A stretch of DNA of 20,000 nt from an uncultured virus (IMG/VR IMGVR_UViG_2851443076_000002) (taxonomy: Duplodnaviria; Heunggongvirae; Uroviricota; Caudoviricetes): positions 50,036 through 70,035 of IMG/VR virus record IMGVR_UViG_2851443076_000002. One strand, 5' to 3'. The translations under genes and the position numbers were made by a program. Positions within the stretch are counted from its first letter, which is position 1; each line of letters starts with the position of its first letter. Below, piece by piece: positions 1,364 to 15,578 of the stretch. The notes below the pieces were generated by a model. It saw only the letters and a list, made by a program, of their open reading frames with translations, ran no database searches and had not been told where the DNA came from.

Positions 1364-1470
1364 GTGTGGTGCCGGGTGCCTCCCGGTAAGTCAGCCCCAG
1401 TCAACAGACCCGCGTGTGTGCTCAAAGAAAAAATTGACTGGTCGCCCCACCGCACAGGGGGATTCACCAC
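1364..1470 (-). ncRNA. Structured small RNA, copy 1 of a 3-copy motif
   Basis: Homologous to 2317-2427 and 15431-15578. Closing stem GUGGUG/CACCAC, conserved ACCGGGAGGCACCCGG hairpin, CCAGUC/GACUGG loop pairing. G-U pairs favour the minus strand. Confidence 0.75.
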
Positions 1471-1476
1471 ACACCC

Positions 1477-1506
1477 ACATTAGCTACACGATATGCGCCT
1501 GGTCAA
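1477..1506 (-). promoter_or_regulatory. Sigma70-like promoter for RNA copy 1
   Basis: TTGACC-N18-TAATGT ending 6 nt before the first G of the motif. Confidence 0.6.
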
Positions 1507-1641
1507 TTCAATGTAACCAGTAAAATACATCTTTCGGAAACTGTATAACCTAGCGGGCAATAATTAATCACTGCATATTTAATCATTACAAAAACAACAA
1601 TAAATTTTCATATCTGTTATCAAATTAAGAAAAAATACTGT

Positions 1642-1655
1642 TAGGAATTTTCTCA
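1642..1655. promoter_or_regulatory. Putative RcsAB box
   Basis: TAGGAATTTTCTCA (reverse complement TGAGAAAATTCCTA) matches the RcsAB consensus TaAGaatatTCctA. Lies ~65 nt upstream of the small membrane protein ORF. Confidence 0.5.
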
Positions 1656-1720
1656 CTTAACTCGCACACTACGCCTCACGCGAACCACAATATCGATAGT
1701 CTTTCAGAGGATAAGCTCAC

Positions 1721-1840
1721 ATGACAACCATAATGATGCTAGCGTTAGCTGTTGTTCTTCTTTTAGTTGCAGTGGGTTCACTGATGTCTTACATCAAAGA
1801 AAGACGCGGATATAAAAAAACTTTCAAAAAAAGATATTAA
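1721..1840 (+). CDS. 39-aa small membrane protein (not in the ORF track)
   Basis: MTTIMMLALAVVLLLVAVGSLMSYIKERRGYKKTFKKRY: one TM helix plus a basic tail. GAGGA RBS at 1707-1711; terminator follows. Confidence 0.8.
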   Translation: MTTIMMLALAVVLLLVAVGSLMSYIKERRGYKKTFKKRY

Positions 1841-1862
1841 CGGTTATCCACTTTTCAAGAAG

Positions 1863-1900
1863 CAGGGGTAGTGGTACGTAAACATTCCCCCTGTTTTTTT
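1863..1900 (+). terminator. Terminator after the small membrane protein gene
   Basis: CAGGGGG...CCCCCTG followed by a T run. Confidence 0.6.
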
Positions 1901-2123
1901 GCTACCACCTTTGGGAACAAAGAACTGCCTTAATCTATAAGTGCTCTCGCTTGTGATGTTCAATTTACCGTTAAAGCGCTCAAGCTGTTGAGCTAAAACC
2001 GCAGTCTGGTGCGAATCTTGCGCGTATGAGATTAAACGTGAAGTACAGCACGCTGTAATCCAATTACCATGACCTGATTACTGATGTGAAAAGCCCAAGT
2101 AGTGCTTAGGCTAGATTATGAAC

Positions 2124-2149
2124 AAAAAAAACCCGCTTAGAGAAGCGGG
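2124..2149 (-). terminator. Intrinsic terminator
   Basis: Minus strand CCCGCTT-CTCT-AAGCGGG followed by T8. Confidence 0.8.
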
Positions 2150-2316
2150 AAGAAAGTTGGCAACCAAGGCTGTAACGAAAGGAAGGTGCACCTAATAGTC
2201 CGAGCTACCGATTTACCAGGAAAGCCTTCTTTTTTTACCGTTACGTTCGTTAACCATAGCCTGACAGACAAAAAGAGCAAGGTTTTTGTCATTACAGTCA
2301 CTATGTTAAGGCATTA

Positions 2317-2427
2317 GTGTGGTGCCGGGTGCCTCCCGGTGAGCATGCCCCAGTCGGCATGGCCCGCGCTGCATTTACAGGTTTCTGTAACTGACTGGTC
2401 GCCCCTCCGCATAGGGGGATTCACCAC
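2317..2427 (-). ncRNA. Structured small RNA, copy 2 of a 3-copy motif
   Basis: GUGGUG AAU CCCCC UAUGC GGAGGG GCGA CCAGUC ... CAUGCC GACUGG GGCAUG CUC ACCGGGAGGCACCCGG CACCAC. Confidence 0.78.
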
Positions 2428-2433
2428 CTCGAT

Positions 2434-2463
2434 AATTTATGATGCAAACATTCAAAGTGTCAA
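2434..2463 (-). promoter_or_regulatory. Sigma70-like promoter for RNA copy 2
   Basis: TTGACA-N18-TAAATT ending 6 nt before the first G of the motif, the same register as copy 1. Confidence 0.65.
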
Positions 2464-2608
2464 TATCTGACCATACCGCCAGCGCCTCTGCCATAATATA
2501 AGCCAACAACGCCCACTTAAATTGTATGCATTCTAATACTTAAAGCTATTGCGAAGCCCTGACTCAATGTAGCACTCACTGATATCAGGTAAATACGAGG
2601 TAAGTAAA

Positions 2609-2812
2609 ATGCTATCTACTGATAACCAAAGAATTTCAGAGATTTTTGAACGTTTGGCAGAAATAGCAGCTAAAACTGCTGAATTAACAAGCAACCCTAA
2701 TCTATCCCCTGCTCAAAAGCAGGCAGCATGTGACAGTTACTTTAGCGAACATGATCAGTTAACAACCGAAGCCCTAGAGATCTTCAAAAAAATCACTAAA
2801 AATCCTCGGTGA
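2609..2812 (+). CDS. Hypothetical 67-aa helical protein (moron, opposite to the late operon)
   Basis: Clean ORF with GAGGT RBS; amphipathic helical composition; no recognised motif. Confidence 0.7.
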   Translation: MLSTDNQRISEIFERLAEIAAKTAELTSNPNLSPAQKQAACDSYFSEHDQLTTEALEIFKKITKNPR

Positions 2813-2847
2813 ATGCTGAAGCATGTGAGATTGCGTATGCAATACGA

Positions 2848-2901
2848 CGATATGACAGGGGTATTGATGCAGCGCATCTCGCGAATACCCCTGTCGTATC
2901 G
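2848..2901. repeat. 18-bp inverted repeat (long RNA stem)
   Basis: CGATATGACAGGGGTATT / AATACCCCTGTCGTATCG with one wobble, enclosing GATGC-AGC-GCATC. Confidence 0.85.
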
Positions 2902-2910
2902 CCGGAAAGC

Positions 2911-2935
2911 AAAAACCCCGCACGGGCGGGGTCTT
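2911..2935 (-). terminator. tR'-like terminator
   Basis: Minus strand GACCCCGC-CCGT-GCGGGGTTTTT, ~65 nt downstream of the pR'-like promoter. Confidence 0.8.
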
Positions 2936-2999
2936 CGTTATATTTAGATTGTCGCTTTTTTTCGCTGCCGAGTGGCGCAGCTCTGCCAAGCATGAAGGG

Positions 3000-3027
3000 A
3001 TTATCTAACTTTCTGGCCCGTTTTCAA
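3000..3027 (-). promoter_or_regulatory. pR'-like late promoter
   Basis: TTGAAA-N16-GATAAT immediately downstream of the Q-like gene and upstream of a terminator. Confidence 0.6.
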
Positions 3028-3055
3028 TACCAAACAGGAAACATAGCACTTTTTG

Positions 3056-3658
3056 CTAATCCGCATGAATCGCCTTATGAACGGAAAGGAAAGCTTTTGC
3101 TCTGAATATTTCAAGGCACCAGCGCACTCTTTTCCGGGCCTCACTGTCTGTTAACCATGGCGCCACCAGCTGTATTTCCCGTGTTATGTCTGAGATTTTT
3201 TTGCGGGTGGTGTAATAGTTAACGCCAACGAGATAAACCGGATCACCCGTTTCAAATATCGCCAGTACACATCGTTCAACAAATTCAACATCATCCTCAG
3301 TGATCGCAGCGTCAATGGCGACCGTTGCAGGCTTCGGCCACAAAATGGCATGCGCCCTGCTTAATGCCTGTCGCCCGCGATACCCTTCACTTCTTGCCTG
3401 CTCGATTGCTGCCGTAAAGCGTTCTAATGCTTTATCTGACCAGTGATCACCCTTCATTCCTCGCCAGCATGAATGTCCTGATGGTTTACGCGGGGCAGCA
3501 CCTCCTCTCATCCCTTCCCCCCAAACAGTAAGCAGAGATTTTATCCAGGCGGACTGAATGCCACTAAGGGGAGTGAATCGGCCCAGCCAGCTTTTGCGCG
3601 GGGCGGCGGCCACTGTTTCTAATCCTGCACGGTGCAGACGGCGTTGACGTGGTGTCAT
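3056..3658 (-). CDS. Late antitermination protein Q-like (DUF1133-like)
   Basis: Last gene before pR'/tR' and the lysis cassette; WIKSLLTVWG motif and basic C-terminal HTH-like region; AGGAGAAGGA RBS. Confidence 0.7.
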   Translation of the reverse strand: MTPRQRRLHRAGLETVAAAPRKSWLGRFTPLSGIQSAWIKSLLTVWGEGMRGGAAPRKPSGHSCWRGMKGDHWSDKALERFTAAIEQARSEGYRGRQALSRAHAILWPKPATVAIDAAITEDDVEFVERCVLAIFETGDPVYLVGVNYYTTRKKISDITREIQLVAPWLTDSEARKRVRWCLEIFRAKAFLSVHKAIHAD

Positions 3659-3674
3659 TCTGTCCTTCTCCTTA

Positions 3675-4706
3675 CTACGCCAGAACGCCGAGCGCGTATG
3701 CCCGGTCCAGCAATTTAATAATCAATACCGGCTGGGCGCCGTATTCACGCTCAAAAGCGGCAGGGTCATGGTGCAAAGCACGGTGGTGCTTGCGGCATAA
3801 TGGGATCGTAAAAATATCGTGGGCCTTGGTGCCTACGCCGCCCTGCCCCCAGCCAATAAGATGGTGTGCATCATCTGCAGGCTGCCCGCAGCACATACAC
3901 GGCTGTTTTTTAACCCATGAGATAAAGTCAGCTGATAACCATCGGCTCCGCTTAGGTCTCGCGAATAGTGTCGCCGGTGCAACAGGATCGACGTTCACAG
4001 GAACCAGAGGTTTGCCCGGCGTTGTTATTGCCGTTGGCTTGATTGCTTTTTCGAGACGGGGAGAAAGAATGCTGGTGGCCGGTACCGACGGAACAATCTC
4101 ACTCTCCCTGTAAACCGATTTAATGCCATCGTCTTTAATACGCAGGGATCGGCGCGCCATTTCTTCTGTAATTTCATCGCCAATCCCGGCGCCTACCGCC
4201 CACCAGCATAGCTCCGCCAGTGACAATGAGCGCTGAGCGTCCAGACCAAGCGCGATGCGGGCAGTGTCGATTACCCAGTCAGCGTTGTTAACACCTACCA
4301 GTTGATCGAGGGTTTGTTCCGTTTGGTTTTTCAGCTCATTATCACAGTGCCAGCATGCGATTATTACACCCGTCGAATGGCGAAATGGGACAAGCTCATG
4401 GTGATGGTAATCGGAATGTGCCCACTGACAGTTTTTAACCTGCCGGCACAACCATGATTCTAAAGCACTAACACCACCAGCCGCCGTGATAACAGCTTTC
4501 TTCATGAAAAATGGTCTGAGCCCCATATCATCCCGCAACGGCTGCCGGGCATCAGGAAGTCGTCCACTGGGTATCTTTTTCATACTTGCCGGCGGTATTT
4601 CCACAAGAACCCGGCCGGAGCCGAATAACGGCATTAATTCACTACCCGGCTTAAGCAGCACAATTCCAAGATGGCGTGCAATATCCACGTTAAGCAAAGC
4701 TCGCAT
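3675..4706 (-). CDS. DUF968 (YdfU-like) protein with C-terminal Zn/His-Me-like motif
   Basis: MRALLNVDIARHLGIVLLKPGSEL start; C-terminal WVKKQPCMCCGQPADDAHHLIG...IPLCRKHH. ATG 4706 overlaps the upstream stop. Confidence 0.9.
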   Translation of the reverse strand: MRALLNVDIARHLGIVLLKPGSELMPLFGSGRVLVEIPPASMKKIPSGRLPDARQPLRDDMGLRPFFMKKAVITAAGGVSALESWLCRQVKNCQWAHSDYHHHELVPFRHSTGVIIACWHCDNELKNQTEQTLDQLVGVNNADWVIDTARIALGLDAQRSLSLAELCWWAVGAGIGDEITEEMARRSLRIKDDGIKSVYRESEIVPSVPATSILSPRLEKAIKPTAITTPGKPLVPVNVDPVAPATLFARPKRSRWLSADFISWVKKQPCMCCGQPADDAHHLIGWGQGGVGTKAHDIFTIPLCRKHHRALHHDPAAFEREYGAQPVLIIKLLDRAYALGVLA

Positions 4707-4909
4707 CAGTCCCTCCACATCTTCTGTATGTAGGTCCTGTCAATCCGTGGCGGCTTCTTCGATTCCGGCAACAGCACGCGGATCTCCCACGATGCAAAGT
4801 CTCTGGATAAGCTCTTCTCAACCACACAGTTATTTTTACGGTATCGCTCCACCAGCTCTGTAGCCTCAGCCTCTGAAAGTTGCTCGTGTAAAAACCAACT
4901 TTTCTTCAT
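4706..4909 (-). CDS. Conserved prophage hypothetical protein
   Basis: Translationally coupled on both sides; MKKSWF...LVERYRKNNCVVEKSLSRD type typical of nin-like regions. Confidence 0.8.
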   Translation of the reverse strand: MKKSWFLHEQLSEAEATELVERYRKNNCVVEKSLSRDFASWEIRVLLPESKKPPRIDRTYIQKMWRD

Positions 4910-5298
4910 GGCTGATCACCGAACAGTCGCAAAAACTCAATCGCTCTTTCACGCGCGCCGGGTTCTTCAGCGATCATTTCCTGCAGCAGCTGCACGGCGA
5001 GCATAGGCTCCTTTCGCCCGACGATGGAAATTCCTCTGGAGACACGGCGAGAGAGTTTTATAAAATTTTTTCTCTCTAACGCACGCAGATGCAACAGGAC
5101 AGCATTAGACGAGCTAACGCCGAGCATATCGGCCAGCTCAGATAGCGTAGGTGGGTAGCCATGCTGATTGATGTAGGCCACCAGCAGATCGAAAACTTCC
5201 TGCTGTCGAAAAGTTAGTTTTGAAGACGAAAGCAAACCGGCGCTCGATGAAGGAGCACCAGTCTGATGGGATTTTGATACTTCGGGGGTTTGCGTCAT
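4906..5298 (-). CDS. LexA-type DNA-binding-domain protein without peptidase domain
   Basis: LTFRQQEVFDLLVAYINQHGYPPTLSELADMLGVSSSNAVLLHLRALERKNFI matches the LexA N-terminal wHTH. Start MTQT at 5298 with GGAGAG RBS. Confidence 0.85.
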   Translation of the reverse strand: MTQTPEVSKSHQTGAPSSSAGLLSSSKLTFRQQEVFDLLVAYINQHGYPPTLSELADMLGVSSSNAVLLHLRALERKNFIKLSRRVSRGISIVGRKEPMLAVQLLQEMIAEEPGARERAIEFLRLFGDQP

Positions 5299-5338
5299 GG
5301 TTTCTCTCCGCGACGCAGCAGGTATAGGTTGTTCAGGC

Positions 5339-5587
5339 CTATGAAAGGAGTGTAACAGAATTCTTGCAAACGCGATAACCAGCACGCTCAAGCATCTGCG
5401 TAAAGAGTGTCGGTGTTCCTATAATATCATCATCCTGTAACGGCATGAATGACACCTCATCACCGCGTCTGTACATGAGCGCGCGCCCAGATTCCGGAAA
5501 TGAGTGCAGTCTTGCAACAATAGCCCCATCGTGGCACCGAATGACCGCGTAGCCCTTACATGGTAATTCCTGTTTATGTTTCACCAA
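5339..5587 (-). CDS. Small prophage protein, candidate antirepressor
   Basis: 82 aa, GTG start with GGAGAGGA RBS; second gene of the LexA-box dinI operon. Function is inferred from position only. Confidence 0.7.
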   Translation of the reverse strand: MVKHKQELPCKGYAVIRCHDGAIVARLHSFPESGRALMYRRGDEVSFMPLQDDDIIGTPTLFTQMLERAGYRVCKNSVTLLS

Positions 5588-5624
5588 TCCTCTCCTTCAC
5601 ACTGGAAAGTCCTTGCAAGCTGTA

Positions 5625-5858: not shown

Positions 5859-5878
5859 AGATGCCTCCACTGCTTAAG

Positions 5879-5894
5879 CTGTATGCATATACAG
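5879..5894. promoter_or_regulatory. LexA (SOS) box
   Basis: CTGTATGCATATACAG = CTGT-N8-ACAG, 20 nt upstream of dinI. Confidence 0.92.
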
Positions 5895-6080
5895 TACACC
5901 TATACTTGTGATTGATCAATGGTTTAACAGCACGAATTGTTAAGTAATGGAGGTTTATCCTCCTTGTAGGTACATATAAAATAAGTGGAATTATCATCAT
6001 GGCAAGGGGAATGGTCTGTGGAACACCACCTGAGCAGATGATGTTCAAAATGAGGGATTACAATTAAAATGTGAAATTAA

Positions 6081-6941
6081 TTACCCTTTAAATTTTGCTG
6101 GGTCAGCACATTCCGGATACTTAAGACCATCGCTAAAATACATTACTTCATCTCCGGTATAACGCTCTTGAGCACTATAACTGATTCCATAAGATAAAGT
6201 TTTAGCAGAACTGTACATCGTACGAATTGGCAAAACATTATCATATGAAACTATCCAAGGTGTTTTAATCTCAGACTGTATTCTAGTAGAAATTAGAACG
6301 TGGTCCTCATGTAAATAATGATTTTCATATAATCCTTTGCCCTTAACATAATATGGAGGGTCAAAATATGTCAAAGAGTTCTCTGGCAATGCCATTATTA
6401 CTTTTGTAATAAAATCATCAGCATCGAGATTAAAAACATGAATTTGATTCTTTTTTTCGGCTATTAGTTTAATCCGCCGTATCAAATCCTCCTTATTGTA
6501 TCTGGCATCCAATTTCCATTTTCCTGATTGATTCTTGCCTCCGATCACTCCCCCCTTAAGTATACCAGAGCGATTTGTTCTATTAAGAAAGAATGTAGCA
6601 AATGCAAGTTGAAGAAGATCCTGATTTTCAGGGTTCGTAATTATTGATTTCTGAAAATGCCACTCATCCATTGTAACATCAGTTCTCAGAATCATGTGGC
6701 ATAATTCATCAGTTCGATTGAGCACACTATCCCAAAAAGAATATACAGCAAGATTCAAATCATTAAGATATATTTGTGAAGCACTTTCTTTAAAAAGTAA
6801 CTTCAACGCCAAACCTGCACCACCCGCGTATGGCTCTGCGTAATGCAGATCCTGTAACTTATTCATTCCTATGATTTTATCCATAAAATTGAACAATTTA
6901 CCCTTACCGCCTGGATAACGTAATGGCGTATTAAACCGCAT
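6081..6941 (-). CDS. Dam/D12-class N6-adenine DNA methyltransferase
   Basis: RYPGGKGKL, EPYAGGAG (SAM binding), DPPYY (catalytic). Likely start MRFNTPL at 6941 with GAGGTG RBS. Confidence 0.93.
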   Translation of the reverse strand: MRFNTPLRYPGGKGKLFNFMDKIIGMNKLQDLHYAEPYAGGAGLALKLLFKESASQIYLNDLNLAVYSFWDSVLNRTDELCHMILRTDVTMDEWHFQKSIITNPENQDLLQLAFATFFLNRTNRSGILKGGVIGGKNQSGKWKLDARYNKEDLIRRIKLIAEKKNQIHVFNLDADDFITKVIMALPENSLTYFDPPYYVKGKGLYENHYLHEDHVLISTRIQSEIKTPWIVSYDNVLPIRTMYSSAKTLSYGISYSAQERYTGDEVMYFSDGLKYPECADPAKFKG

Positions 6942-7021
6942 AAAGCACCTCGTATGTATCAGCCAATATTGTACCAAATTTGAAAAGGTTATGGCCATAC
7001 AATAATTCAACGTAAAAACAA

Positions 7022-8764
7022 TCACTTATCAATTTGAAGATAGCCATACACTTTGCCAGACTCAATGCCAAAGCCATTGATGAGCGCATTAATCAAGCTA
7101 GATTCAAATTTATTCTTAAATTCAACTTTATATTCTGGGTTATGTTTTAGCCAATATCTAAAGGGGTTTTTATTTACCGGACCAGTTAAAAGCTCTCGAA
7201 CTTTATCATTTTGAGCAAAAGACTTGAATAAAGTTCTTAACTCTCCTTTAACACTTTCCGCACTTTTACCTTTTCTGTAATTCTTGATAACATCTGAGAG
7301 AGATATTTTTTCCTCGACTATATTCAGCCTATCTATTATATCAGCGCTAATTTTAAGAAACACTACCTTTGTGAAGCCATTATTTTTTTGCCAATATGAG
7401 TCTTCCTTATCCAAATTATACATGAACTCAAATAAAAGCTGGTCAGGTGGAAGAGTTGTCGGCAACAAGCATAGGCTTTTTTCAGCTTTTGCTTTTTTAG
7501 CATTCGGACCGTTATCATTTACTACATCACCATCTAAAACTATGATACTTTTATTGATAAACTCAGGAATTTTACGTGCCATCAAATCAAGCAAAGTATT
7601 GCAGCTAATATTTACATCCTTCAGTGGCGTGAGAATTTTATTTATATGTCGTTCTGTTATTAGTTGTTTAAAAAACAAATACCCCTCAAAATCCTCAAAA
7701 TATACATTTATTTTAGGAAATGCCTCTTCAGCATCAACTTTTATAGTATCAACCAGTAAATCAGCATTAATCTCTGGCCATGATAGATTTGTCTTAGCCG
7801 AAATAGGACCATATGTATCTGTGAGATACACCGTTCTATAATCTTTATCAGCAAGTTGGCTAAGTTTAAATACTTCCTCTATAAGTATTGGCGAGTGAGA
7901 AGTCATTACGATTTGTAAGTCAAGCTTACTAGCCATTCTCTTAAGAACGTTAATTAGTTCAATTTGAGCAGCAGGGAAAAGTCCTGCATCCGCCTCATCA
8001 ATCAGTAGAATACCGCCATGATAATCTTTAAACTCCTCTTTCAATCTTTTAAAAGAAAATATAGCTTGTATAATTTGTCCTACGTTATCCTCGCCGACAG
8101 AAACAGATTCGTGGTCATAGTAGTCTCCATGTACAACCATTGAGTCAATAGTTCCTGTAGTTGCAGTAATGGAGGTTCCATTTTCCTTAATGAGTAGCCT
8201 TCTGTTCATTGCTAATATTTCATTTTTATTATCAATAATATATTGCTCATCCCTCTCGCTATACTCAGGCCTCAATGTTATAGGTAGAAGCCTCTGAAGG
8301 CTAAGATATATTACAGGATGTGTAACATTGCGGCTGGTATTTTTATTCCCTAAAACATCATTATTTCTGAGGACTGGCCTTGCTTTCTGATGATATTTTG
8401 AATCAACAAGACCAAGTTTTAAATTATTTAATTCTTTTTGAAAAGCACCATCATATAGAGTTATTTGCACTTCCATCCCGCCGGGCGCATCAAATTTACT
8501 TGAAAATCTAAAATGTTCACTAAATTGTGACTTGAAGCGATTCCCTGTAAGGGTCCGAAAGGAACCTAATGACTCCGCTGGCTCCTTTGAATAATCATGA
8601 GAGAAACTAAAAATTTGTGCAATAATACCAAGTATTGTAGATTTTGACGTACCATTTTTGCCGCAAATAACAGTAATACGCTCTCCGAAGGCGATATTTA
8701 CATTTTTTAATCCGCGAAAAGCTTCCACATGCATACTACGGAGTTTAGTTAAAGGTTTAGCCAC
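7022..8764 (-). CDS. ABC-type ATPase fused to a TOPRIM-like domain (OLD/AAA_15-21-like nuclease)
   Basis: Walker A GKNGTSKST, signature SVGE, Walker B LLIDEAD, H-loop TSHSP. C-terminal VYFED and IIVLDGD acidic motifs. GTG start with AGGAAGGA RBS. Confidence 0.85.
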   Translation of the reverse strand: MAKPLTKLRSMHVEAFRGLKNVNIAFGERITVICGKNGTSKSTILGIIAQIFSFSHDYSKEPAESLGSFRTLTGNRFKSQFSEHFRFSSKFDAPGGMEVQITLYDGAFQKELNNLKLGLVDSKYHQKARPVLRNNDVLGNKNTSRNVTHPVIYLSLQRLLPITLRPEYSERDEQYIIDNKNEILAMNRRLLIKENGTSITATTGTIDSMVVHGDYYDHESVSVGEDNVGQIIQAIFSFKRLKEEFKDYHGGILLIDEADAGLFPAAQIELINVLKRMASKLDLQIVMTSHSPILIEEVFKLSQLADKDYRTVYLTDTYGPISAKTNLSWPEINADLLVDTIKVDAEEAFPKINVYFEDFEGYLFFKQLITERHINKILTPLKDVNISCNTLLDLMARKIPEFINKSIIVLDGDVVNDNGPNAKKAKAEKSLCLLPTTLPPDQLLFEFMYNLDKEDSYWQKNNGFTKVVFLKISADIIDRLNIVEEKISLSDVIKNYRKGKSAESVKGELRTLFKSFAQNDKVRELLTGPVNKNPFRYWLKHNPEYKVEFKNKFESSLINALINGFGIESGKVYGYLQIDK

Positions 8765-9524
8765 GATAAATTCCTTCCTTGCGTAAGTGATTTTTATAAA
8801 TACTATATATACTTTTTTTCACTTCAATTCAAGAAATACATCTTGTTGATACAGAGAACCTTGCATATCCAAATCAAAAGTCTGCTTAGCAGGTTTGAAT
8901 TAACAGAGAAAATACAAAATATAATCTTTTACTTACTTTTAATTCCCATGTGCTACGGAGTCGTCAAAGATGGATAGCTTAACAATTATGTCCAATGATA
9001 TCAACTTGCCCCCCCCTATTAGCTTGCTAGTACAGGTTAAACATTTAATGAAACTTATTGCTGTGATGCAGGAATATTTTTCAGCAGTATGATATTCAAC
9101 ATAATGAGTTTATGAATTTACCATTGTACTTATCATTGCTTCTTTAAAAAGTCTCTCAATTATAAGATAGCATATTTTTCTTCACTTAGTGATCTTGCAG
9201 CGTAGAAATGAACAGCATGCCTATATATTATCTGCTATTTATCATCACCTTATCCACAACCGCTTGTACTTTATTAAAAGTAGCATTTTTAGCAACTGGA
9301 TGATTTTTCTCATAAACAGAAAGCTCAGGAGTTGATAGTCTAAATGAGAGACCTACATTAAGGAAGGAAATTCTAAATATTACCAATTTACAACTCAAAA
9401 ATGCTCAAATCATGGTAGAAGGTTCCAATCCCTAAGAAATGACGATACAATCAATAGCAACATCTTTTATGTTTCGATGGGAATTCTCAACTCCTATTGC
9501 AAAAATACAAAGCGAGCTGGCAGA

Positions 9525-10520
9525 ATGAATGAAAATCTTTATCGCTTGATTATTGACTTTCAAAGTAATGTTCAGAGTGCCTTAAAAATCATGTATCGTT
9601 CAGGTATTCAGATGCCGTCCAGTTGTTATGAATGGCTCGAGTATCATATACCTATTTCAGGTGAGTTAGAAGACGGGCGAAAATATTACAAACATGGCTA
9701 TGGATGCCGGGTGTATCTAAATTCAAAGGGGGTGGACTTTGACTTCGGGGAACAGGGTGAAGTAGGTGGGTTTAATTCGTGGGGGTTAACTGAATTTGCT
9801 GGAAGTAATTTGTCATCTTATGGCTTCAGAAATTATGAGGAAGTTAATGAACAGCTGAAGAGTGCGTTAGATAATGGACAGATAGCCCCCCTGAACAATA
9901 ACCTTTACTATTTTACAGATATTCCTTTTATGTATGCATCAGATACAGACAGCCGAAATCCTGATGATATGCTACCTTGTCGCGATCGAGACCGCGTACT
10001 AACACTCCAGATTCATTATTTTGAAACAGCTGACCTCATGTTTAAAAAATACGACAAGCTTAATGAAAGAATGAAAAAGAAAGGCCTTTTGAACCGTCAA
10101 GATAAATTTGAGTGGAGAACTTACCTTGTTACATGGTTAGGTTTTTTAGGTGTTGTATGCGAAGGTTTTCGAGGGCTAAACATCCGGCTTTTACTGAATA
10201 ATGAACGCCCTAATACTTTTCAAGAATTATTACCTATTTCTAATGACATAGGGACGTTGATGAAAGCGCATTCAGATTCACTAAGAAAATTTAGAAATAA
10301 TGTTTTTCATATGAGAGAGAATAGTGATTTTCTATCCCATTTTTTTGATAAAGATGTTGAGCGTCTGTCATGGGCTCGCGAATTGCATACAGCATTATCG
10401 ATTTTTTTTTCGGAGTATAGAGTTTTATGTGAAGTACACTATATAAGAAATGGGCGCAAAGGAGAAAGCGAACTGTTCGCACTAAATCAACCTCGCGTAA
10501 AAAATAAAAATATACGCTAG
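9525..10520 (+). CDS. DUF6896-like N-terminal domain fused to a HEPN-motif C-terminal domain
   Basis: N-terminal YYKHGYGCRV...VDFDFGEQGEVGGFNSWGLTEF; helical C-terminus with RNNVFH (R-x4-H). Start could be 9477 or 9525. Confidence 0.65.
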   Translation: MNENLYRLIIDFQSNVQSALKIMYRSGIQMPSSCYEWLEYHIPISGELEDGRKYYKHGYGCRVYLNSKGVDFDFGEQGEVGGFNSWGLTEFAGSNLSSYGFRNYEEVNEQLKSALDNGQIAPLNNNLYYFTDIPFMYASDTDSRNPDDMLPCRDRDRVLTLQIHYFETADLMFKKYDKLNERMKKKGLLNRQDKFEWRTYLVTWLGFLGVVCEGFRGLNIRLLLNNERPNTFQELLPISNDIGTLMKAHSDSLRKFRNNVFHMRENSDFLSHFFDKDVERLSWARELHTALSIFFSEYRVLCEVHYIRNGRKGESELFALNQPRVKNKNIR

Positions 10521-11160: not shown

Positions 11161-11452
11161 AAATATCCCTCACATTTTCCATCACTTTTGATTAAAAAAT
11201 AAAATATATTCTTAAATTGACATTTGTGAACATGCTATAGGTCCAAATGACTTAGCATGAATGGCGGTTCCAAAGAACCGCCACAACTCAGGCCCCACAA
11301 CTGCAACTAGAACATTTTATTAACATATACGCGACTATAATGTCCAGTAAATCTACAAGCATTGCTGTCTGAATTTGTACTACCCCTATATCTTGTTGCC
11401 GATATTTATTTTTCAATTGTTATAAATCCTTGCATTTGTTAAACAGACTCCA

Positions 11453-11665
11453 TCAAGTCAAACTCGATAGCTGCACGACGATGGTGGATTGCTGCCAGGC
11501 GTCCATGGCAAATGTTCCCCCTGGTTCTCTCTGTAACCTGATATGTTTTATGGGAACTCCGGTCATTCTAGCTACCTGTTCGGTTGTGATGCGCCCATGC
11601 TTTTTTACAAAATCAATAATCCTCCGAACATCCCACACCTTCTGCAGTAGGGTTCTTTTAGCCAT
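11453..11665 (-). CDS. Short wHTH protein (DUF977-like), possibly truncated
   Basis: MAKRTLLQKVWDVRRIIDFVKKHGRITTEQVARMTG with GAGGTG RBS right after perC; the C-terminus runs into the AT-rich cargo boundary. Confidence 0.55.
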   Translation of the reverse strand: MAKRTLLQKVWDVRRIIDFVKKHGRITTEQVARMTGVPIKHIRLQREPGGTFAMDAWQQSTIVVQLSSLT

Positions 11666-11667
11666 AG

Positions 11668-12108
11668 TCAACACCTCGCCGCGTTGCGCAGGCAGCGGTT
11701 GCGCATTCTGGCCAGCAACCAGAGCTCGTTTGCTGTTGTTGTCATTCCAAGCATCGATGTATAAACAGTCGCAGCTCGGCGCCACAGCTTTTTGTCTTCC
11801 AGCATCTTAGCCAAGGACAGTGCGTTTTGGACTTTTTTCACATCCTCTTCAGATAATGGTGTTGCAGTCTGCGGCAGGGCAACATCGGGAACCTCAACGC
11901 CTGCAACAACCCGGTAGACATACTGGCAACCGTTATGGGTACGATGGAGTTTTCCCGCGGCATGGAGCTGCCGCAGCAAGTTACCTGCTGTACTGGCTTG
12001 CAAGTCGAGCGCATCGCAGACATCCTGCAGGACGCATTCTGGCGTCCGGCTAACGATGGCAAGCACCATCTGTGCTTTGGTTACTTTGGTTTTTGATTGT
12101 TTGGTCAT
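11668..12108 (-). CDS. wHTH + PerC-family protein
   Basis: N-terminal HTH (LQDVCDALDLQASTAGNLLRQL); C-terminal AKMLEDKKLWRRAATVY...RNRCL PerC signature. Confidence 0.82.
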   Translation of the reverse strand: MTKQSKTKVTKAQMVLAIVSRTPECVLQDVCDALDLQASTAGNLLRQLHAAGKLHRTHNGCQYVYRVVAGVEVPDVALPQTATPLSEEDVKKVQNALSLAKMLEDKKLWRRAATVYTSMLGMTTTANELWLLARMRNRCLRNAARC

Positions 12109-12121
12109 GGTCAAAACTCGT

Positions 12122-12793
12122 TTACTTGGTTAAACCTGCCGCCTTGCGGCGTTTGTACTCTTCCATCAGAAGCTGTGCTGGTGTAGGCCCAGCCGGATGT
12201 CGCGGCGCTTCAAGCTGTCGGCGAATCGGCGGGATCGAGAATCCATTAGCCAGGTGCTTCGTCCACTTCGTAAGTAATTTTTCTGCCAGTTTTTTTAGTT
12301 CCCCCTCTGTGAGGTTTCGCTCAACTCCCGTTCTGCGCATCTCAACGCAAATGTGATACAGCACGTCCTGTTTCCAGGGATATCTGTCGCTGCCCGAAAA
12401 GCGATAAGACTCATTGCGCCAGCGCTTGTATTCAGCCATCACAGCTTCGGACGTCAGGTTGAATGGGTTGGCTCCACTCGCCGAAACCAGCGCAACGAAT
12501 TCAGCCAGATCCGGTGGCCATGTGTTACCCGCGGCGCAGCGTTCCATGCACTGGCGGCAGACCAGGGTAATCTGGGCATCACTCATCGATCCAATCTGGG
12601 CAATCCACATATCCGAGGGAGCCGCCCCGTTCTTCTGGGTCCACCGGTTCGAGAATATCTCCCCCATGACCGTCCATAGCCGCCATGCCGTATCCGCCGC
12701 CAGCAAGTCCGCGTTGCTTCTCCCAGAGCTCTCTGGCTTCCTGAATTTGCTGGACTGCCCGGGATGCGGTGTTAACTGATTGAATTCTTGCAT
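12122..12793 (-). CDS. Replication protein P-like (helicase loader)
   Basis: Follows the initiator; contains WTQKNG and WPPDLAEF motifs. ATG 12793 has GGAGGT 7 nt upstream. Confidence 0.78.
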   Translation of the reverse strand: MQEFNQLTPHPGQSSKFRKPESSGRSNADLLAADTAWRLWTVMGEIFSNRWTQKNGAAPSDMWIAQIGSMSDAQITLVCRQCMERCAAGNTWPPDLAEFVALVSASGANPFNLTSEAVMAEYKRWRNESYRFSGSDRYPWKQDVLYHICVEMRRTGVERNLTEGELKKLAEKLLTKWTKHLANGFSIPPIRRQLEAPRHPAGPTPAQLLMEEYKRRKAAGLTK

Positions 12794-13562
12794 TGCCGTT
12801 ACCTCCGGTTGCTGGTTGTGGTTTGGATTTGGCTCTGGCATTTATCACGCTGCGGGCAAATTTCTGCTCCCACTGAACCTGAGTGAACACTTTCCCCTCG
12901 GATTTCCAGTACGCGGTGAACTCTGCCAGCTCTGTCGGCAGGTATGCCGGTTCGGGAAGCGCTATTCCCCAGGTAGCAGCCAGTCGCGGCCAGTCCTGTG
13001 ACGGCAGCCAAAGGTCGTGCATGGCGAATTTCCCGATCGGAATATCCACTCCAGGCAGATACTGAGGTTCCTGAAAAACATTTCCCTTGTGCGCATAGAG
13101 AGTGGGGTTTGATCCTTTTCCCTTCCCTTCCCTTCCTTTTCCGTCAGTGAGTCCTCCATGAGGATTCACTGAGTCCTCACTGAGCCCTCCTTGATTAGGA
13201 GCTCTCTTTTCTTCCTTTCCTGCCTTAGACTCAGTGAATTCTGGCGGAAGAGGTATTTTTGAGGCCGAAGGCCTGTTTATTTTTTGATGCTTAAGGAAAC
13301 CTTTAATCTGCAAATAGCAGACATCATTCACTGAATACTCAGTGAGTAATCCATGAGTAATCAGTTCCTGTATTAGTGGTTCGCAATCGAGCGCGTCCGC
13401 AGGGAAGATTTGCATCTTCAACCGTTTTGGCGAACGCTCAAGGCATCCCATATCGTTGGCGAAGTTGAACAACCCGATAAACAGGAGACGCGCTGGAATT
13501 GAACATTCCACCACCTTCTCATCTGTCCAGAATTCAGGTTTAACTGTTCTGATGCGGGCCAT
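12579..13562 (-). CDS. Replication initiator with DnaT-like DNA-binding domain
   Basis: MARIRTVKPEFWTDEK N-terminus typical of phage replisome organisers; GKFAMHDLW...ELAEFTAYW...QWEQKFAR DnaT-like domain; internal iterons. Confidence 0.88.
   Translation of the reverse strand: MARIRTVKPEFWTDEKVVECSIPARLLFIGLFNFANDMGCLERSPKRLKMQIFPADALDCEPLIQELITHGLLTEYSVNDVCYLQIKGFLKHQKINRPSASKIPLPPEFTESKAGKEEKRAPNQGGLSEDSVNPHGGLTDGKGREGKGKGSNPTLYAHKGNVFQEPQYLPGVDIPIGKFAMHDLWLPSQDWPRLAATWGIALPEPAYLPTELAEFTAYWKSEGKVFTQVQWEQKFARSVINARAKSKPQPATGGNGNARIQSVNTASRAVQQIQEARELWEKQRGLAGGGYGMAAMDGHGGDILEPVDPEERGGSLGYVDCPDWIDE
13117..13365. repeat. Putative replication origin: 11-bp-period iterons and a (CCCTT)n tract
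   Basis: TCAGTGAGTCC TCCATGAGGAT TCACTGAGTCC TCACTGAGCCC (13144-13187); TCACTGAATAC TCAGTGAGTAA TCCATGAGTAA (13328-13360); single TCAGTGAAT at 13231; pyrimidine tract 13117-13140. Confidence 0.75.
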
Positions 13563-13613
13563 CTGAAACCTCTTATTAGCCAGCTGGTGCTGGTGGTCAT
13601 TGTCAAAACTCGA

Positions 13614-14168
13614 TTAGAAAAACTGCGGCGCTACGGCGCTGATGCTCGCCAGAAGTGGTCCCGCCGCATCTGCAGGAAGCATGTTAAAAAGTGCAATTGC
13701 TGCCTCCCGAATTTCACGCTCTAACTTCTGCAACGGAGCACCAAGCAATTTTGCCTGGTGCGCTTCGCTACACTCTTTGATTGCTTGAGCCACCAGCTCG
13801 CTTTCAGTCAATCCACGTTTCAATCCGTGTTTGCGCGCAATCTCAATAGGCATCGCATCAGCGATCGCTCCTGAAAGCTGCATGACGTAGCTGGTGTACT
13901 TCTCTGATCCGGATTCGTTTTTCAGGTAGCGGTACAGATTCTGTTTATTGACGTTTATTCCGCGACCGTTTTGTTTTCTCCATTGCTCATCCACCAGCTG
14001 CGCGATGTGGTCCTGTGCACGTCCAGGTAAAGTCGACTCCCATTCCTGAACGGCAGCAAAAATTGCTCTACTCTTCATCCGAGCCCGGCGTAGACCGGAA
14101 AACTGATTTTCTGAGTTCAGTTGCAGGCCCATTACCGGGTTATGATTTTTAAAAGAGATGGTTTGCAT
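13614..14168 (-). CDS. ydaT: CII-like YdaT-family protein
   Basis: Directly after the cro-like gene; AVQEWESTLPG...NKQNLYRYL...AIKECSEAHQAKLLGAP...EIREA motifs. Confidence 0.85.
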   Translation of the reverse strand: MQTISFKNHNPVMGLQLNSENQFSGLRRARMKSRAIFAAVQEWESTLPGRAQDHIAQLVDEQWRKQNGRGINVNKQNLYRYLKNESGSEKYTSYVMQLSGAIADAMPIEIARKHGLKRGLTESELVAQAIKECSEAHQAKLLGAPLQKLEREIREAAIALFNMLPADAAGPLLASISAVAPQFF

Positions 14169-14170
14169 GC

Positions 14171-14392
14171 TTACTCCTTCGGTAATCCATCCGTTGGGTT
14201 TGGGTAGAGATCTGGTCTGAGTTCATGCGGAGTAACTTTCCACTCCAATGCCTTACTGACTTTCAGAACCAACTCGCCGGGAACTTTATGTTTGAACCAA
14301 CCATTTACTGTTTGTGCTCGCCGATTAAGCCGCCGTCCGATTTCCGATTGGCTACACACGGCAAGTAATTTTTTTTGAAGTGATGGCTTCAT
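14171..14392 (-). CDS. ydaS: Cro-like YdaS-family regulator
   Basis: HTH SQSEIGRRLNRRAQTVNGW; C-terminal VTPHELRPDLYPNPTDGLP; divergent from the repressor. Confidence 0.88.
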   Translation of the reverse strand: MKPSLQKKLLAVCSQSEIGRRLNRRAQTVNGWFKHKVPGELVLKVSKALEWKVTPHELRPDLYPNPTDGLPKE

Positions 14393-14408
14393 GCGCTGCT
14401 CCACTAAG

Positions 14409-14496
14409 AACTGTAAATTTGAATTACAGTTTAATCAGTTTATTTCGATAGTGTCAAATCATTCGATATGAGGCCTGAAGAAAAAATCTGTATAAT
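14409..14496. promoter_or_regulatory. oR region: pR, pRM-like -10 and operator-like repeats
   Basis: Minus strand TTGACA(14457-52)-N18-TAAACT; plus strand TATAAT 14491-96; palindrome AACTGTAA-N7-TTACAGTT; AGTTTATTTCGATA matches AGTTTATATCGATA at 15029-15042. Confidence 0.7.
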
Positions 14497-14503
14497 CTTT
14501 CTC

Positions 14504-14917
14504 ATGTGTTTGTTTGGGTGGATGAAGATGAACTTTGGTGTTCGACTGCAACGAGTCTTAGATGAGATAGGAATGTCTCAATCAGAACTGGGGCGGAGGA
14601 TCGGTGCGACATCCCAATCAGTGAATGGCTGGTGTCAGGCTGGAATCCTTCCCAGAAAAGAAATGCTTGAGCAACTTCCTGATATAACAGGAAAACCTTT
14701 GTATTGGTTTTTCATGACAGATGAAGACGAAGAGACGCTGCAACCGCCAAGATCGGAAGATATCTATGTCCTTACCCCGGAGACCAAAAAGCTCATAGAA
14801 ATTTACGATCAGCTTCCTCAAGTGGAGCAAGAACGATTCGTCGGGTTAATGCAGTTAAGGCTGGAAGAACTCGATGCTTTCATGAACGAATATTTAATGA
14901 AACGAAAGAAAGACTAG
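14504..14917 (+). CDS. CI-like XRE repressor (DicA/RacR-type, no S24 peptidase domain)
   Basis: HTH MSQSELGRRIGATSQSVNGW; short helical C-terminus. Start uncertain (14504, 14522 or 14528). Confidence 0.88.
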   Translation: MCLFGWMKMNFGVRLQRVLDEIGMSQSELGRRIGATSQSVNGWCQAGILPRKEMLEQLPDITGKPLYWFFMTDEDEETLQPPRSEDIYVLTPETKKLIEIYDQLPQVEQERFVGLMQLRLEELDAFMNEYLMKRKKD

Positions 14918-14942
14918 AACAGCCTTCCCCCCCTTCATAAGC

Positions 14943-14964
14943 GCCGCCTTCGGGCGGTTTTTTT
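14943..14964 (+). terminator. Terminator after the repressor gene
   Basis: GCCGCC-TTCG-GGCGGT followed by a T run. Confidence 0.9.
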
Positions 14965-15006
14965 GTGCCTGCTCCCCACCTCACATCCAATTCTGAAATT
15001 TAAATC

Positions 15007-15047
15007 ATCAGTTTTAATTGACAGCTGTAGTTTATATCGATAATACT
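15007..15047 (+). promoter_or_regulatory. pL-like promoter / oL
   Basis: TTGACA 15018-23 with an AT-rich -10 region (GATAATACT), overlapped by operator-like repeats shared with oR. Confidence 0.7.
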
Positions 15048-15063
15048 ATCTCCGTCCTATGAC

Positions 15064-15127
15064 GTCATCGAGGCAGGAAGCCCACGAAGTAGCTGCCGGC
15101 GGCATACGAAACACCGGATGAGATGAC
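15064..15127 (+). ncRNA. Structured leader RNA, possibly sRNA-Xcc1-like
   Basis: Closed by GTCATC/GATGAC with internal GGCAG/CTGCC and CCGG...ATACGAAACA...CCGG. The family name is from recollection and needs Rfam confirmation. Confidence 0.45.
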
Positions 15128-15189
15128 AGCAATATCAATCGCAGCAGGTTAAATGTTCGGCTGCCCGGCCTTAAGGGAAGGAAATAAGT

Positions 15190-15312
15190 ATGGATAAAGC
15201 ATACGAAGACTATTTTGAAAACCTCTCTGAAGGTGAAGAGGCACTGAGTTTCAGCGAGTTTACCGCGGCACTTTCAGGTAAGCCGGCAGACTACGCCTCT
15301 TCTGAGATGTAA
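15190..15312 (+). CDS. ydfB: YdfB-like 40-aa acidic protein (not in the ORF track)
   Basis: MDKAYEDYFENLSEGEEALSFSEFTAALS closely resembles Qin YdfB (KAYEEYFEGLAEGEEALSFSEF); GGGAAGGA RBS. Confidence 0.8.
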   Translation: MDKAYEDYFENLSEGEEALSFSEFTAALSGKPADYASSEM

Positions 15313-15323
15313 TGGAAATCCTG

Positions 15324-15402
15324 CGCGCTTCGTGGTGGTGAATTGCAGGGTGAAAAAGCTCAATCGTGAAGATCAGCGTCACGACACCACCGACGAAGCG
15401 CG
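15324..15402 (+). ncRNA. Three-way-junction RNA element in a long closing stem
   Basis: CGCGCTTCGT-GGTGGTG / CACCACC-G-ACGAAGCGCG, enclosing ATTG..CAAT and CGTGA..TCACG hairpins. Confidence 0.55.
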
Positions 15403-15430
15403 TCGAAGTAGTGAAAATAAAAAATCAGGG

Positions 15431-15578
15431 TTTGCAATGCGGTGAATGCGGCTATGCGCACGCGACACAGTTAAAAAAGTAAACATGGCGGTTATTCACA
15501 CGTTGTGGGGAAAAAGTTGTCGGCGGTAGTTGTTAACTGGCTGCCGTCACCGGGAGGCACCCGGCGCCGCATTGCAAA
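15431..15578 (+). ncRNA. Structured RNA, copy 3 of the 3-copy motif
   Basis: TTTGCAATGCGGTG/CGCCGCATTGCAAA closing stem. 19-nt identity TCACCGGGAGGCACCCGGC with the reverse complement of 2324-2342. CAGTTAA/TTAACTG loop pairing. Confidence 0.72.

Follow-up and report, generated by a model that had tools for sequence, protein, structure and literature searches.

The nearest described relatives of the RNA elements considered here are small RNAs (sRNAs) encoded by prophages. EcOnc27 (also sRNA103), which lies downstream of stx2B in the Stx2 phages of O157 strains and overlaps a prediction for the RNA family STnc100, is bound by Hfq in crosslinking and analysis of cDNA (Hfq-CRAC) and is visible on Northern blots; its overexpression raises the fimZ and espA transcripts by a mechanism that is unclear, and in at least eight Sakai prophages pairs of Hfq-binding sRNAs are found in the interval from late promoter to lysis genes, for a reason likewise called 'unclear' (PMC7873438, PMC12711010). 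PasD of enteropathogenic Escherichia coli (EPEC) is known from Northern blots, from its Hfq-dependent stability and from partners recovered by RIL-seq, in which interacting RNAs are ligated to one another and then sequenced (PMC8550237); it has been likened in structure to STnc100 by means of cmscan, it lies near a Q gene in >98% of cases, and what the Pas sRNAs do 'has not been elucidated' (bioRxiv 10.64898/2026.05.13.724894). STnc100 itself has been reported in vesicles, and an 11-nt match to stxB was proposed without functional test (PMC12370729). Here we describe three copies of this element in one stretch of 20,000 nt (hereafter the window), which forms the final 20 kb of a provirus record of 70,035 nt from an uncultured virus (IMG/VR IMGVR_UViG_2851443076_000002). 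Copies 1 and 2 lie on the minus strand, copy 3 on the plus strand.

The three copies belong to one RNA family, share one fold that includes a pseudoknot, and occupy two genomic settings; RNA is made from the locus of copy 2. The reading that we consider probable is that the three repeats are genes or segments of a single folded phage RNA family, STnc100, with copies 1 and 2 working as Hfq-associated sRNAs and copy 3 being processed by RNase III. In large part the window is ordinary: the RNA genes are known, their place is the usual one and the family has been described. Less obvious are the pseudoknot, the covariation of a 5-bp hairpin (P5, below), and the identity of the element in the early-left operon with the fold of the dicB/kilR leader, none of which we found stated in the literature searched.

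Copies 1 and 2 resemble STnc100 and EcOnc27 in matching the whole family model, in their nested helices and in their place between late promoter and lysis genes. The provirus differs in that the nearest phage records to the window are those of Klebsiella phages (31/31 by megablast), in that its copies stand in tandem, and in that copy 3 falls below the family cut-off and has neither promoter nor terminator. PasD1 and PasD2 of EPEC E2348/69 are likewise prophage sRNAs that adjoin a Q gene and holin and lysozyme genes; they are likened to our copies through their authors' cmscan link and through this setting, not by sequence.

Family membership and a shared fold

When the window was scanned with Rfam at gathering thresholds (47 bits for STnc100, RF02076), copy 1 matched at 1312-1491 on the minus strand (85.4 bits, E 2.3e-17) and copy 2 at 2259-2460 on the same strand (79.0 bits, E 1e-15); each alignment spans model positions 1-206. 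Copy 3 matches the model at 15433-15578 on the plus strand over positions 26-154, with 34.6 bits, below the cut-off (E 5.6e-6 in a search of 451 nt). The consensus helices of STnc100 – closing stem, bulged hairpin, P4, and a 5-bp hairpin with an AGGCA loop – are all present in the model alignments, in pair counts and in predicted folds. Judged by sequence, copies 1 and 2 are ordinary, full-length members of the catalogued STnc100 family in its usual place, and copy 3 represents a subtype that has diverged from them within the STnc100 fold. A preliminary description of the window, made from its letters, had named STnc100 as a family with which the repeats might overlap; the suggestion was correct, and with it goes the novelty of copies 1 and 2, whose family is catalogued and whose relatives are Hfq-bound sRNAs on published Northern blots.

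A covariance model built from the three copies and their relatives (R1), a step that the preliminary description had proposed, finds exactly three matches in the 70,035-nt provirus, with 94.7 bits for copy 1 (folded core 1366-1470, minus), 92.7 bits for copy 2 (folded core 2319-2427, minus) and 68.6 bits for copy 3 (15431-15578, plus; core 15439-15570); all three were part of the alignment on which the model was trained (A1, below). On records outside the training set R1 scores 73.7 bits in phage P7, 71.5 bits in mEp460 and 68.6 bits in the leader of E. coli dicB, the training set having contained similar viral copies of the copy 3 type. Two candidates for a fourth, degenerate copy were set aside: one seen by eye at about 15330-15395 (GGUGGUGAAU...CACCACC), and a weak Rfam match just outside the window (G000:C1:47966-48106, 17.4 bits). 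R1 matched neither at E values up to 1.

The core measures about 105-130 nt and comprises, in order, a closing stem (P1), an AAU linker, a bulged hairpin with the loop UNNGC (P2), the 5′ strand of the pseudoknot, a variable arm (P3), a hairpin whose loop takes part in the pseudoknot (P4), a 5-bp hairpin with the loop AGGCA (P5) and the 3′ strand of P1, to which P5 is joined without a spacer. Two forms can be told apart by P2, which reads CCCCC-UNNGC-GGAGGGG in copies 1 and 2 (type A) and GCGGC-UNNGC-GCACGC in copy 3 (type B). Every feature that the preliminary description had listed – closing stem, linker, bulged hairpin, a strand pairing with a downstream loop, a variable segment and a constant hairpin – is present in all three copies where it had placed them; the ends it gave for copy 3, 15431 and 15578, are the exact outer ends of a 14-bp closing stem.

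Relatives were gathered through the exact 16-mer of P5, which occurs in at least 128 IMG/VR contig stretches. These stretches and the window yielded 150 instances, 121 of them distinct. A closing stem was parsed in 114 of the distinct instances, and 109 of these 114 carry the AAU linker. In a MAFFT alignment of 103 distinct cores (A1; 24 nested pairs counted, the pseudoknot omitted) 92.7% of cells are paired, against 80.1% in shuffles, and 17 pairs show double changes. The covariation score of 0.392, against 0.152, was reached by none of 500 shuffles, and when partners were slid by 1-3 columns 39-48% of cells remained paired. Double changes occur in 6/6 pairs of P1, where 99% of cells are paired, in 3/5 pairs of P2, where CG, GC and UA interchange, and in 8/8 pairs of P4. 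The segment between the 5′ strand of the pseudoknot and P4 varies both in sequence and in length, as had been claimed for it.

P5 cannot vary in A1, the set having been collected by the sequence of P5. A second collection was made by the P2-side pattern of copy 3 and gave 121 type-B instances. Their P5 stem is CCUGG/CCAGG in 72, CCGGG/CCCGG in 34 and a near-variant in five (loop AGGAA in two, AAGCA in two, AGGCG in one); in the remaining ten it was not found by pattern, these being truncated loci, stems with one mismatch, one CCAAG/CUUGG and one instance without a recognisable P5. An alignment of 65 type-B sequences (A2), from which one internally deleted locus (L205) was excluded, was scored over 39 pairs including the pseudoknot, whose strands are out of register in about 10 of the 65 rows. 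Pairing extends to 92.5% of cells, against 84.5% in shuffles; double changes are seen at 23 pairs, and 0/500 shuffles score as high. The third pair of P5 is UA in 43 sequences, GC in 21 and AU in one; the 14-bp P1 has double changes in 10/14 pairs, and its outermost 14 columns are 91.6% paired. P5 is a covarying helix with a conserved AGGCA loop, not an invariant block. The preliminary description had called this hairpin invariant, which holds for the 16-mer in the three copies and for the conservation of the loop, and fails for the stem across the family. Its broader proposal of a functional RNA family with covariation is borne out: the changes across 103 and 65 distinct relatives support P1, P2, P4, P5 and the pseudoknot.

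The loops are constant (AGGCA in P5, U..GC in P2) while the stems covary. A contact between the loops of P2 and P5, both of which contain GC, was considered and rejected: by eye, no compensatory change accompanies the rare P5 loop variants, and one of these retains the ordinary P2 loop. Single-sequence minimum-energy folding gives P1, P2, P3, P4 and P5 for copies 2 and 3 (z -2.21 and -2.84); for copy 1 it gives the 9-bp pseudoknot pairing as a nested helix in place of P4 (z -0.82).

It might be supposed that what is conserved here is DNA: a patch of homology at which lambdoid modules recombine. The homology between the window and related prophages, as seen in three RNA-library assemblies, does break at 15424-15427, the 5′ edge of copy 3, and copy 3 therefore sits at a mosaic joint. 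Yet the second pair of P4 is GU in 55 of the 103 cores of A1, and G-U pairs, which are specific to a strand, are common on the strand stated, which argues for conservation as RNA and not as DNA. The compensatory changes, the covarying pseudoknot and the fact that the locus is transcribed tell in the same direction, and a recombination patch may be a by-product of a conserved RNA. Conservation at the level of DNA is, in our view, scarcely credible as the explanation.

In the pseudoknot a strand 3′ of P2 pairs with the loop of P4. In copy 1 the 5′ strand CCAGUCAAU (1433-1441, minus) forms 9 bp with GUUGACUGG (1397-1405, minus) in the P4 loop; in copy 2 CCAGUC (2393-2398, minus) pairs with GACUGG (2350-2355, minus), which makes up the entire loop; in copy 3 CAGUUAA (15468-15474, plus) pairs with UUAACUG (15533-15539, plus), again in the loop of P4. 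Strand pairs among the relatives include CCAGUC/GACUGG, AUCAGC/GCUGGU, CUGGUGU/ACACCGG, AAUGAC/GUCAUU, CAGUUAA/UUAACUG, AAGGUUG/CAACCUU, GAACUGGC/GCCAGUUC and AGACUGAC/GUCAGUCU.

MAFFT sets the two strands out of register between the subtypes, and the pairing was hence tested by script. A first test, on 68 distinct strand pairs among 114 cores, gave a helix score of at least 6 for 83% of cognate strands and for 29% of randomly re-paired strands, many of which share the same allele. A second parse succeeded for 167 of 168 cores, with 52 distinct strand pairs. A helix of at least 5 bp is formed by 91% of the cognates, by 20% of the mirror-loop controls and by 35% of the non-cognates with a different loop allele, and one of at least 6 bp by 47%, 6% and 13%, respectively; all these helix lengths are underestimates, the P4 parser running the stem into the loop and so shortening loops. 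The pseudoknot is well supported. It is absent from the structure line that cmscan prints for STnc100, covariance models being unable to carry one; the Rfam seed alignment may differ. In the STnc100 literature searched – main texts, as distinct from figures and supplements, and these in part – no pseudoknot is tied to STnc100: where the two words occur together, 'pseudoknot' refers to other RNAs, and the word is absent from the available main text of the Pas preprint, which deals with the structure of the family (10.64898/2026.05.13.724894). The dicB papers retrieved with 'pseudoknot' have neither word in their titles or abstracts.

Two genomic settings

The PHROGs gene map places copies 1 and 2 (minus strand) in the late operon, in the interval from Q to the lysis genes, and copy 3 (plus strand) within the early-left operon, that of the promoter PL. 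This agrees with the preliminary description, which had assigned the family to both regions, and it means that one provirus holds both forms, type A and type B.

Copies 1 and 2 are each flanked by what look like the signals of a transcription unit. A promoter-like site (1477-1506, minus; TTGACC-18 nt-TAATGT, 8/12) ends 6 nt before P1 of copy 1; weak alone, it is backed by the enrichment of such sites at this position among relatives. At 1314-1346 (minus) a terminator-like hairpin, its stem read by eye and its tail rich in U, aligns with the terminator of the STnc100 model. The promoter-like site of copy 2 (2434-2463, minus; TTGACA-18 nt-TAAATT, 10/12) also ends 6 nt before P1, and a terminator-like hairpin followed by a T-run lies at 2124-2149 (minus; hairpin 2132-2149, a 7-bp stem with 5 GC pairs, then TTTTTTTT), where the transcript of copy 2, about 300 nt long, likely ends. 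Among the 96 type-A relatives with enough flanking sequence, a promoter match of at least 9/12 in register with P1 is found in 25, and one of at least 8/12 in 51, against 1/87 when the scan is shifted 25 nt upstream; a terminator-like hairpin with a T-run occurs within 104 nt in 62 of the 96, its start at a median of 28 nt after P1. The two copies stand in tandem about 950 nt apart, with small open reading frames (ORFs) on the opposite strand between them. The marks of a stand-alone sRNA gene – a promoter-like site, a terminator-like hairpin and a place between Q and lysis genes – are found together at copies 1 and 2, and not at copy 3.

The start of the late operon lies further upstream. Directly after the Q-like antiterminator gene (3056-3658, minus; phrog_753, E 1.1e-54) come a candidate late promoter PR′ (3000-3027, minus; TTGAAA-16-GATAAT) and a candidate terminator tR′ (hairpin 2915-2932, minus, then UUUUUGCUUU), which ends a short leader (2915-3027); the assignment, made by position, is likely. 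Because this PR′-like site and its terminator lie upstream of them, copies 1 and 2 are extra genes and not the late leader itself. The leader deserves mention in its own right: with a GC-rich terminator hairpin some 60-80 nt past the likely late promoter, the segment 2915-3027 (minus) is a candidate for a short constitutive leader. It has no match in the Rfam gathering scan of the window, and presumably occupies the place of lambda 6S RNA or of StxS of Stx phages.

Interleaved with copies 1 and 2 are small ORFs on the plus strand (946-1167, 1721-1840 and 2609-2812), antisense to the late operon. One codes for a protein of the YnfU family (Pfam PF23499, E 1.3e-28), another for a hydrophobic peptide of 39 aa (NCBIfam NF033853, 'small membrane protein', 45.2 bits), and the third, of 67 aa, has no firm family; the last two are each divergent from one STnc100 copy. 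Complementarity between the RNAs of the copies and these three antisense ORFs is not above chance.

Copy 3 is differently placed. Its closing stem consists of 14 perfect pairs (15431-15444 with 15565-15578), and no promoter or terminator was found at its flanks; in type-B relatives, too, an own promoter (0/17) and a terminator (0/17) are lacking. Downstream of the cI-like repressor gene lies a PL-like promoter (15018-15047, plus; TTGACA-18 nt-AATACT, 10/12, a consensus match only), which precedes copy 3 by about 380 nt. The closing stem is followed, at a distance of 36 nt, by the start of a 40-aa ORF (15614-15736, plus; phrog_22279, E 3e-19, function unknown), which holds the position that dicB or kilR holds in E. 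coli relatives. All that distinguishes type B – the form of P2, a closing stem of about 14 bp, the want of a promoter and terminator, and a place in a PL-type operon before a small ORF – is found at copy 3.

By blastn copy 3 matches 44 phage records, 38 of them over at least 80% of the query, among them Rac-SA53, mEp460, PPompW-type prophages and the P1-like phages P7 and D6. The match in mEp460 lies in a PL-type operon, just before dicB. That in P7 (L134 2505-2618) is an unannotated part of the ban operon, with a tRNA-Thr gene on one side and terB on the other, and has by eye a 9-bp closing stem; D6, too, has its type-B copy in the ban operon, flanked by tRNA genes and terB. The C4 antisense RNA of P1 and P7, a small phage RNA that folds and whose recognition loops can be exchanged, was considered here since copy 3 matches P7 and D6, and was rejected. 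No Rfam C4 match was found in the window, and the annotation of the 5 kb around the P7 copy in the ban operon shows no immunity (immI) genes.

In E. coli the element fills the interval from the DicF terminator to the start codon of dicB. A query of 240 nt, which runs from the end of DicF through the element and 50 nt into dicB, has a match in 4645 of the 5426 complete E. coli genomes, 4011 of them at a coverage of at least 80%; at the dicF-dicB locus dicB is the sole annotation. In one such locus (L256) Rfam gives DicF 72.5 bits at 2464-2515 and STnc100 34.5 bits at 2513-2722. Copy 3 shares with this spacer of the Qin-type dicBF operon the fold, a GCGGC-type P2, a long closing stem and a place in a PL-type operon just before a small ORF. 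It differs in its P5 (CCGGG/CCCGG, against CCUGG/CCAGG in the E. coli dicF-dicB spacer), in that a 40-aa ORF and not DicB follows, and in that the window has no DicF upstream: DicF (RF00039) gives no match in the window at gathering score, the positive control being the 72.5 bits of L256.

What follows type-B copies was surveyed in the 76 instances with at least 300 nt downstream, in 58 of which an ORF was called. DicB accounts for 34 of these (NF049927, 132.8 bits) and a 73-aa 'FtsZ inhibitor protein' (NF008465, 161.6 bits), which we take to be the KilR family, for nine; there are also three proteins of 141-144 aa, three hydrophobic peptides of 35-36 aa, one homologue of the 40-aa ORF of the window and eight singletons. 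The start of the ORF falls anywhere from 20 to 94 nt after the end of P5.

The E. coli locus also offers a clue to the long closing stem. DicF exists in a 53-nt form, which arises by termination, and a 72-nt form, which arises from the full-length transcript through RNase III (PMC5069750). Counted from the start of the DicF match, 72 nt lead to base ~2535 of L256, which by eye is inside the 5′ strand of P1 (2529-2543), an arithmetic that depends on the true 5′ end of DicF and is good to a few bases. Because the 72-nt end falls inside the long P1, we infer that in type B the lengthened P1, which stacks on P5, would be an RNase III site, and that the same would apply to copy 3. The element is not discussed in the part of Ragunathan et al. 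2023 that was available (PMC10448788), and the RNase III mapping papers, in the parts available, mention dicF in passing or in their reference lists only (PMC6212723, PMC5371410).

The two settings bear on whether the core acts in cis, as a riboswitch-like sensor or attenuator leader of the terminator or ORF that follows it, the 'sRNAs' then being terminated leaders. The layout of type A, a promoter, a structured domain and a terminator at a median of 28 nt thereafter, would suit such a role, as would the constant place of type B a short way upstream of a small ORF that has a Shine-Dalgarno sequence of its own; a pseudoknot with conserved junctions is, moreover, typical of aptamers. However, the gene after the terminator of copy 2 is on the opposite strand, and copy 1 is separated from the holin gene by about 430 nt plus one more terminator. 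In the three type-B cases that were read, the 3′ strand of P1 is clear of the Shine-Dalgarno sequence, the spacing to the start codon is inconstant (above), and no alternative pairing with the terminator was seen. We regard a cis-acting sensor as unlikely.

They bear equally on antitermination, one of the roles that the preliminary description had put forward. The put RNAs of phage HK022 are, like our copies, structured phage RNAs downstream of early promoters; put is ~70 nt long, has two stem-loops and binds the zinc-binding domain of the beta′ subunit of RNA polymerase (PMC9378689). A processive antiterminator RNA of this kind might act from PL or from the copies' own promoters, and it is true that one copy lies downstream of PL and two in the late operon, and that no N-like protein is evident among the PL ORFs in the ORF list. 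But putL and putR look unrelated, with no sequence or model match to the copies of the window, and HK022 is without an STnc100 or R1 match. Terminators come after 62 of 96 type-A copies, and relatives accumulate as discrete sRNAs; the E. coli element stands downstream, not upstream, of the DicF terminator; the phage has a Q-like gene of its own, followed by a promoter-like site and a terminator-like hairpin; and downstream of PL no terminator-like site was found on the plus strand in 14959-16000. That the core is an antiterminator is very improbable.

Expression and possible mode of action

What might these RNAs do? If, as we think probable, they are Hfq-associated sRNAs and an RNase III-processed relative, copies 1 and 2 would be stand-alone sRNA genes, cargo inserted between the late promoter and Q on one side and the lysis genes on the other, and the sigma-70-type promoter-like site of copy 2 would start its RNA at P1. 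By analogy with their relatives, both RNAs most likely arise in the lysogen and associate with Hfq. They may act in trans on mRNAs by base pairing, in which case the pseudoknotted core could provide a stable scaffold at the 5′ end, with the choice of target left to the variable arm, the 3′ tail or both. Copy 3 would be cut out of the PL transcript, or would cut it apart, through RNase III; such a cut would detach the PL RNA on its upstream side from the small ORF that follows, and might set the core free.

Among 24 runs of 11 studies, 16 came from RNA libraries; all but one (X24) took the form of assembled contigs, and expression was gauged from four runs placed on the whole window. In a run of size-fractionated RNA (X11) the contig covering 1158-2833 reaches a depth of 492.7, against 2.5, 9.8 and 8.9 for the neighbouring pieces (705-933, 942-1185 and 2951-3397, respectively). 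X24 consists of raw reads from single-cell RNA sequencing, of which about 2 in 100 were read. Its bin 2002-2668 has a depth of 22.5 with the first mate on the plus strand, against 2.49 on the other strand, and every other bin, on either strand, is at or below 3.42; the bin of copy 1 is low (1.94 and 0.93). Reads in this run turn unmatched just past 2417, 2422 and 2427 (10, 14 and 11 reads), positions which coincide with the predicted 5′ end of a minus-strand RNA from copy 2.

Several points weigh against the reading we prefer. The contigs show neither the strand nor the ends of an RNA, nor which underlying gene is expressed. The reads of X24 in 2002-2668 would mean minus-strand RNA, the strand of copy 2, if this library follows the usual convention. 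The bin of copy 3 is near zero (0.08 and 0.39), as is expected for a repressed PL operon. Taken by themselves, promoter-like sites are not in excess around copies 1 and 2, a scan of 850-3100 returning 3 against 4.4 in shuffles, and the terminator of copy 1 was called neither by the consensus scan nor by a strict script. A base-pairing target was sought in the window, where complementarity of at least 10 nt, beyond self-antisense and the shared core, is at the level of chance; the longest such chance complementarity measures 13 nt and lies on a strand of the P4 stem. The antitoxin and guide roles that the preliminary description had entertained are likewise without support in the window, there being no complementary target beyond chance. 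Variable arms, moreover, are often mere tolerated insertion sites, and variability is no proof of specificity. Finally, a conserved multi-helix, pseudoknotted core with fixed loops exceeds the usual needs of a base-pairing sRNA, which points to a partner that is a protein or a ligand. The main doubt that these features suggest is that the core, serving as the 5′ domain of an sRNA and as a leader alike, is too elaborate for a scaffold.

This doubt leads to a reading that we hold possible though doubtful, in which the conserved core is the active part – a protein-binding or tRNA-like decoy module with two routes of production – while the arm is tolerated and Hfq is secondary. We would place in the same modest range of probability the more general proposition that the core is a self-contained module which binds a protein or a small ligand, and which is supplied either from its own promoter among the cargo genes of the late region or by RNase III excision from the PL transcript, just ahead of FtsZ-inhibitor or kil-type genes. 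The same core is, after all, both the 5′ domain of sRNA genes and an element embedded in an operon; its loops (AGGCA in P5, U..GC in P2) are fixed although the stems covary; no spacer parts P5 from the 3′ strand of P1, which gives a continuous stack; and in type B the outermost columns of P1 are paired to the extent given above, with the published 72-nt end of DicF inside the stem. On the other side, the analysis brought to light no partner protein and no gene that constantly adjoins the core; that P1 is cut on both its strands is an assumption; relatives bind Hfq and form RIL-seq chimeras with mRNAs; and rare variants of the P5 loop (AGGAA, AAGCA, AGGCG) do exist. Were the core such a module, the Hfq-binding sRNAs of the late region in enterohaemorrhagic E. 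coli would be tied, via a shared partner, to the control of host-killing genes of prophages.

The family merits attention under either reading. Its type-B form is common, being found in 4645 of the 5426 complete E. coli genomes, and family members adjoin medically watched loci, for example downstream of stx2B and in the interval from late promoter to lysis genes, an arrangement that reviews call unexplained (PMC7873438). Members go by separate sRNA names – STnc100, EcOnc27/sRNA103, PasD – and the form in the dicB/kilR leader is unannotated. The fold described here provides a precise structural model for mutagenesis, and a testable link between late-region sRNAs and the leaders of genes for FtsZ inhibitors.

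The surrounding provirus

PHROGs, Pfam and NCBIfam scans of the ORFs identify the source of the window as a lambdoid provirus. On the minus strand these scans place a cro-like gene (14171-14404), a cII-like gene (13614-14168) and replication genes (12579-13562 and 12122-12841), with a nin-type region between the replication genes and the Q-like gene; beyond copies 2 and 1 lie the genes for a holin (589-876) and an endolysin (92-589). On the plus strand the cI-like repressor gene (14468-14917) is followed by small ORFs, and further on by an exonuclease gene (16456-18594), xis (18623-18892) and int (from 18873). Besides the break at the edge of copy 3, the homology to related prophages in the three RNA-library assemblies breaks at 5360.

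Within the nin-type region an adenine methyltransferase gene (6081-7025, minus; PADLOC PD-Lambda-5_B, E 9.5e-122, 403.8 bits) overlaps by 4 nt the gene for a 580-aa ATPase of the AAA_15/AAA_21 kind (7022-8764, minus), whose best PADLOC matches, among the best 25 of 110 families, are ATPases of the PtuA, AriA and GajA types. By their sequences the two genes (6081-8764) look like a two-gene anti-phage defence system of the PD-Lambda-5 type. A 347-aa protein with a DUF6896 domain (E 1.2e-28) is encoded at 9477-10520 on the plus strand, opposed to the direction of the early-right operon.

Two genes of the PL operon downstream of copy 3 may be added. One, at 15943-16314 (plus), encodes a winged-helix regulator of the Rrf2 family (PF02082, E 3.4e-14). 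The other is the exonuclease gene already listed (16456-18594, plus), whose 712-aa product joins the N-terminal part of a RecE-like exonuclease VIII (PF06630) to a C-terminal Rv2179c-like 3′-5′ exoribonuclease domain (PF16473, E 5.1e-70); a gene of the same kind comes after dicB and ydfD in the E. coli locus.

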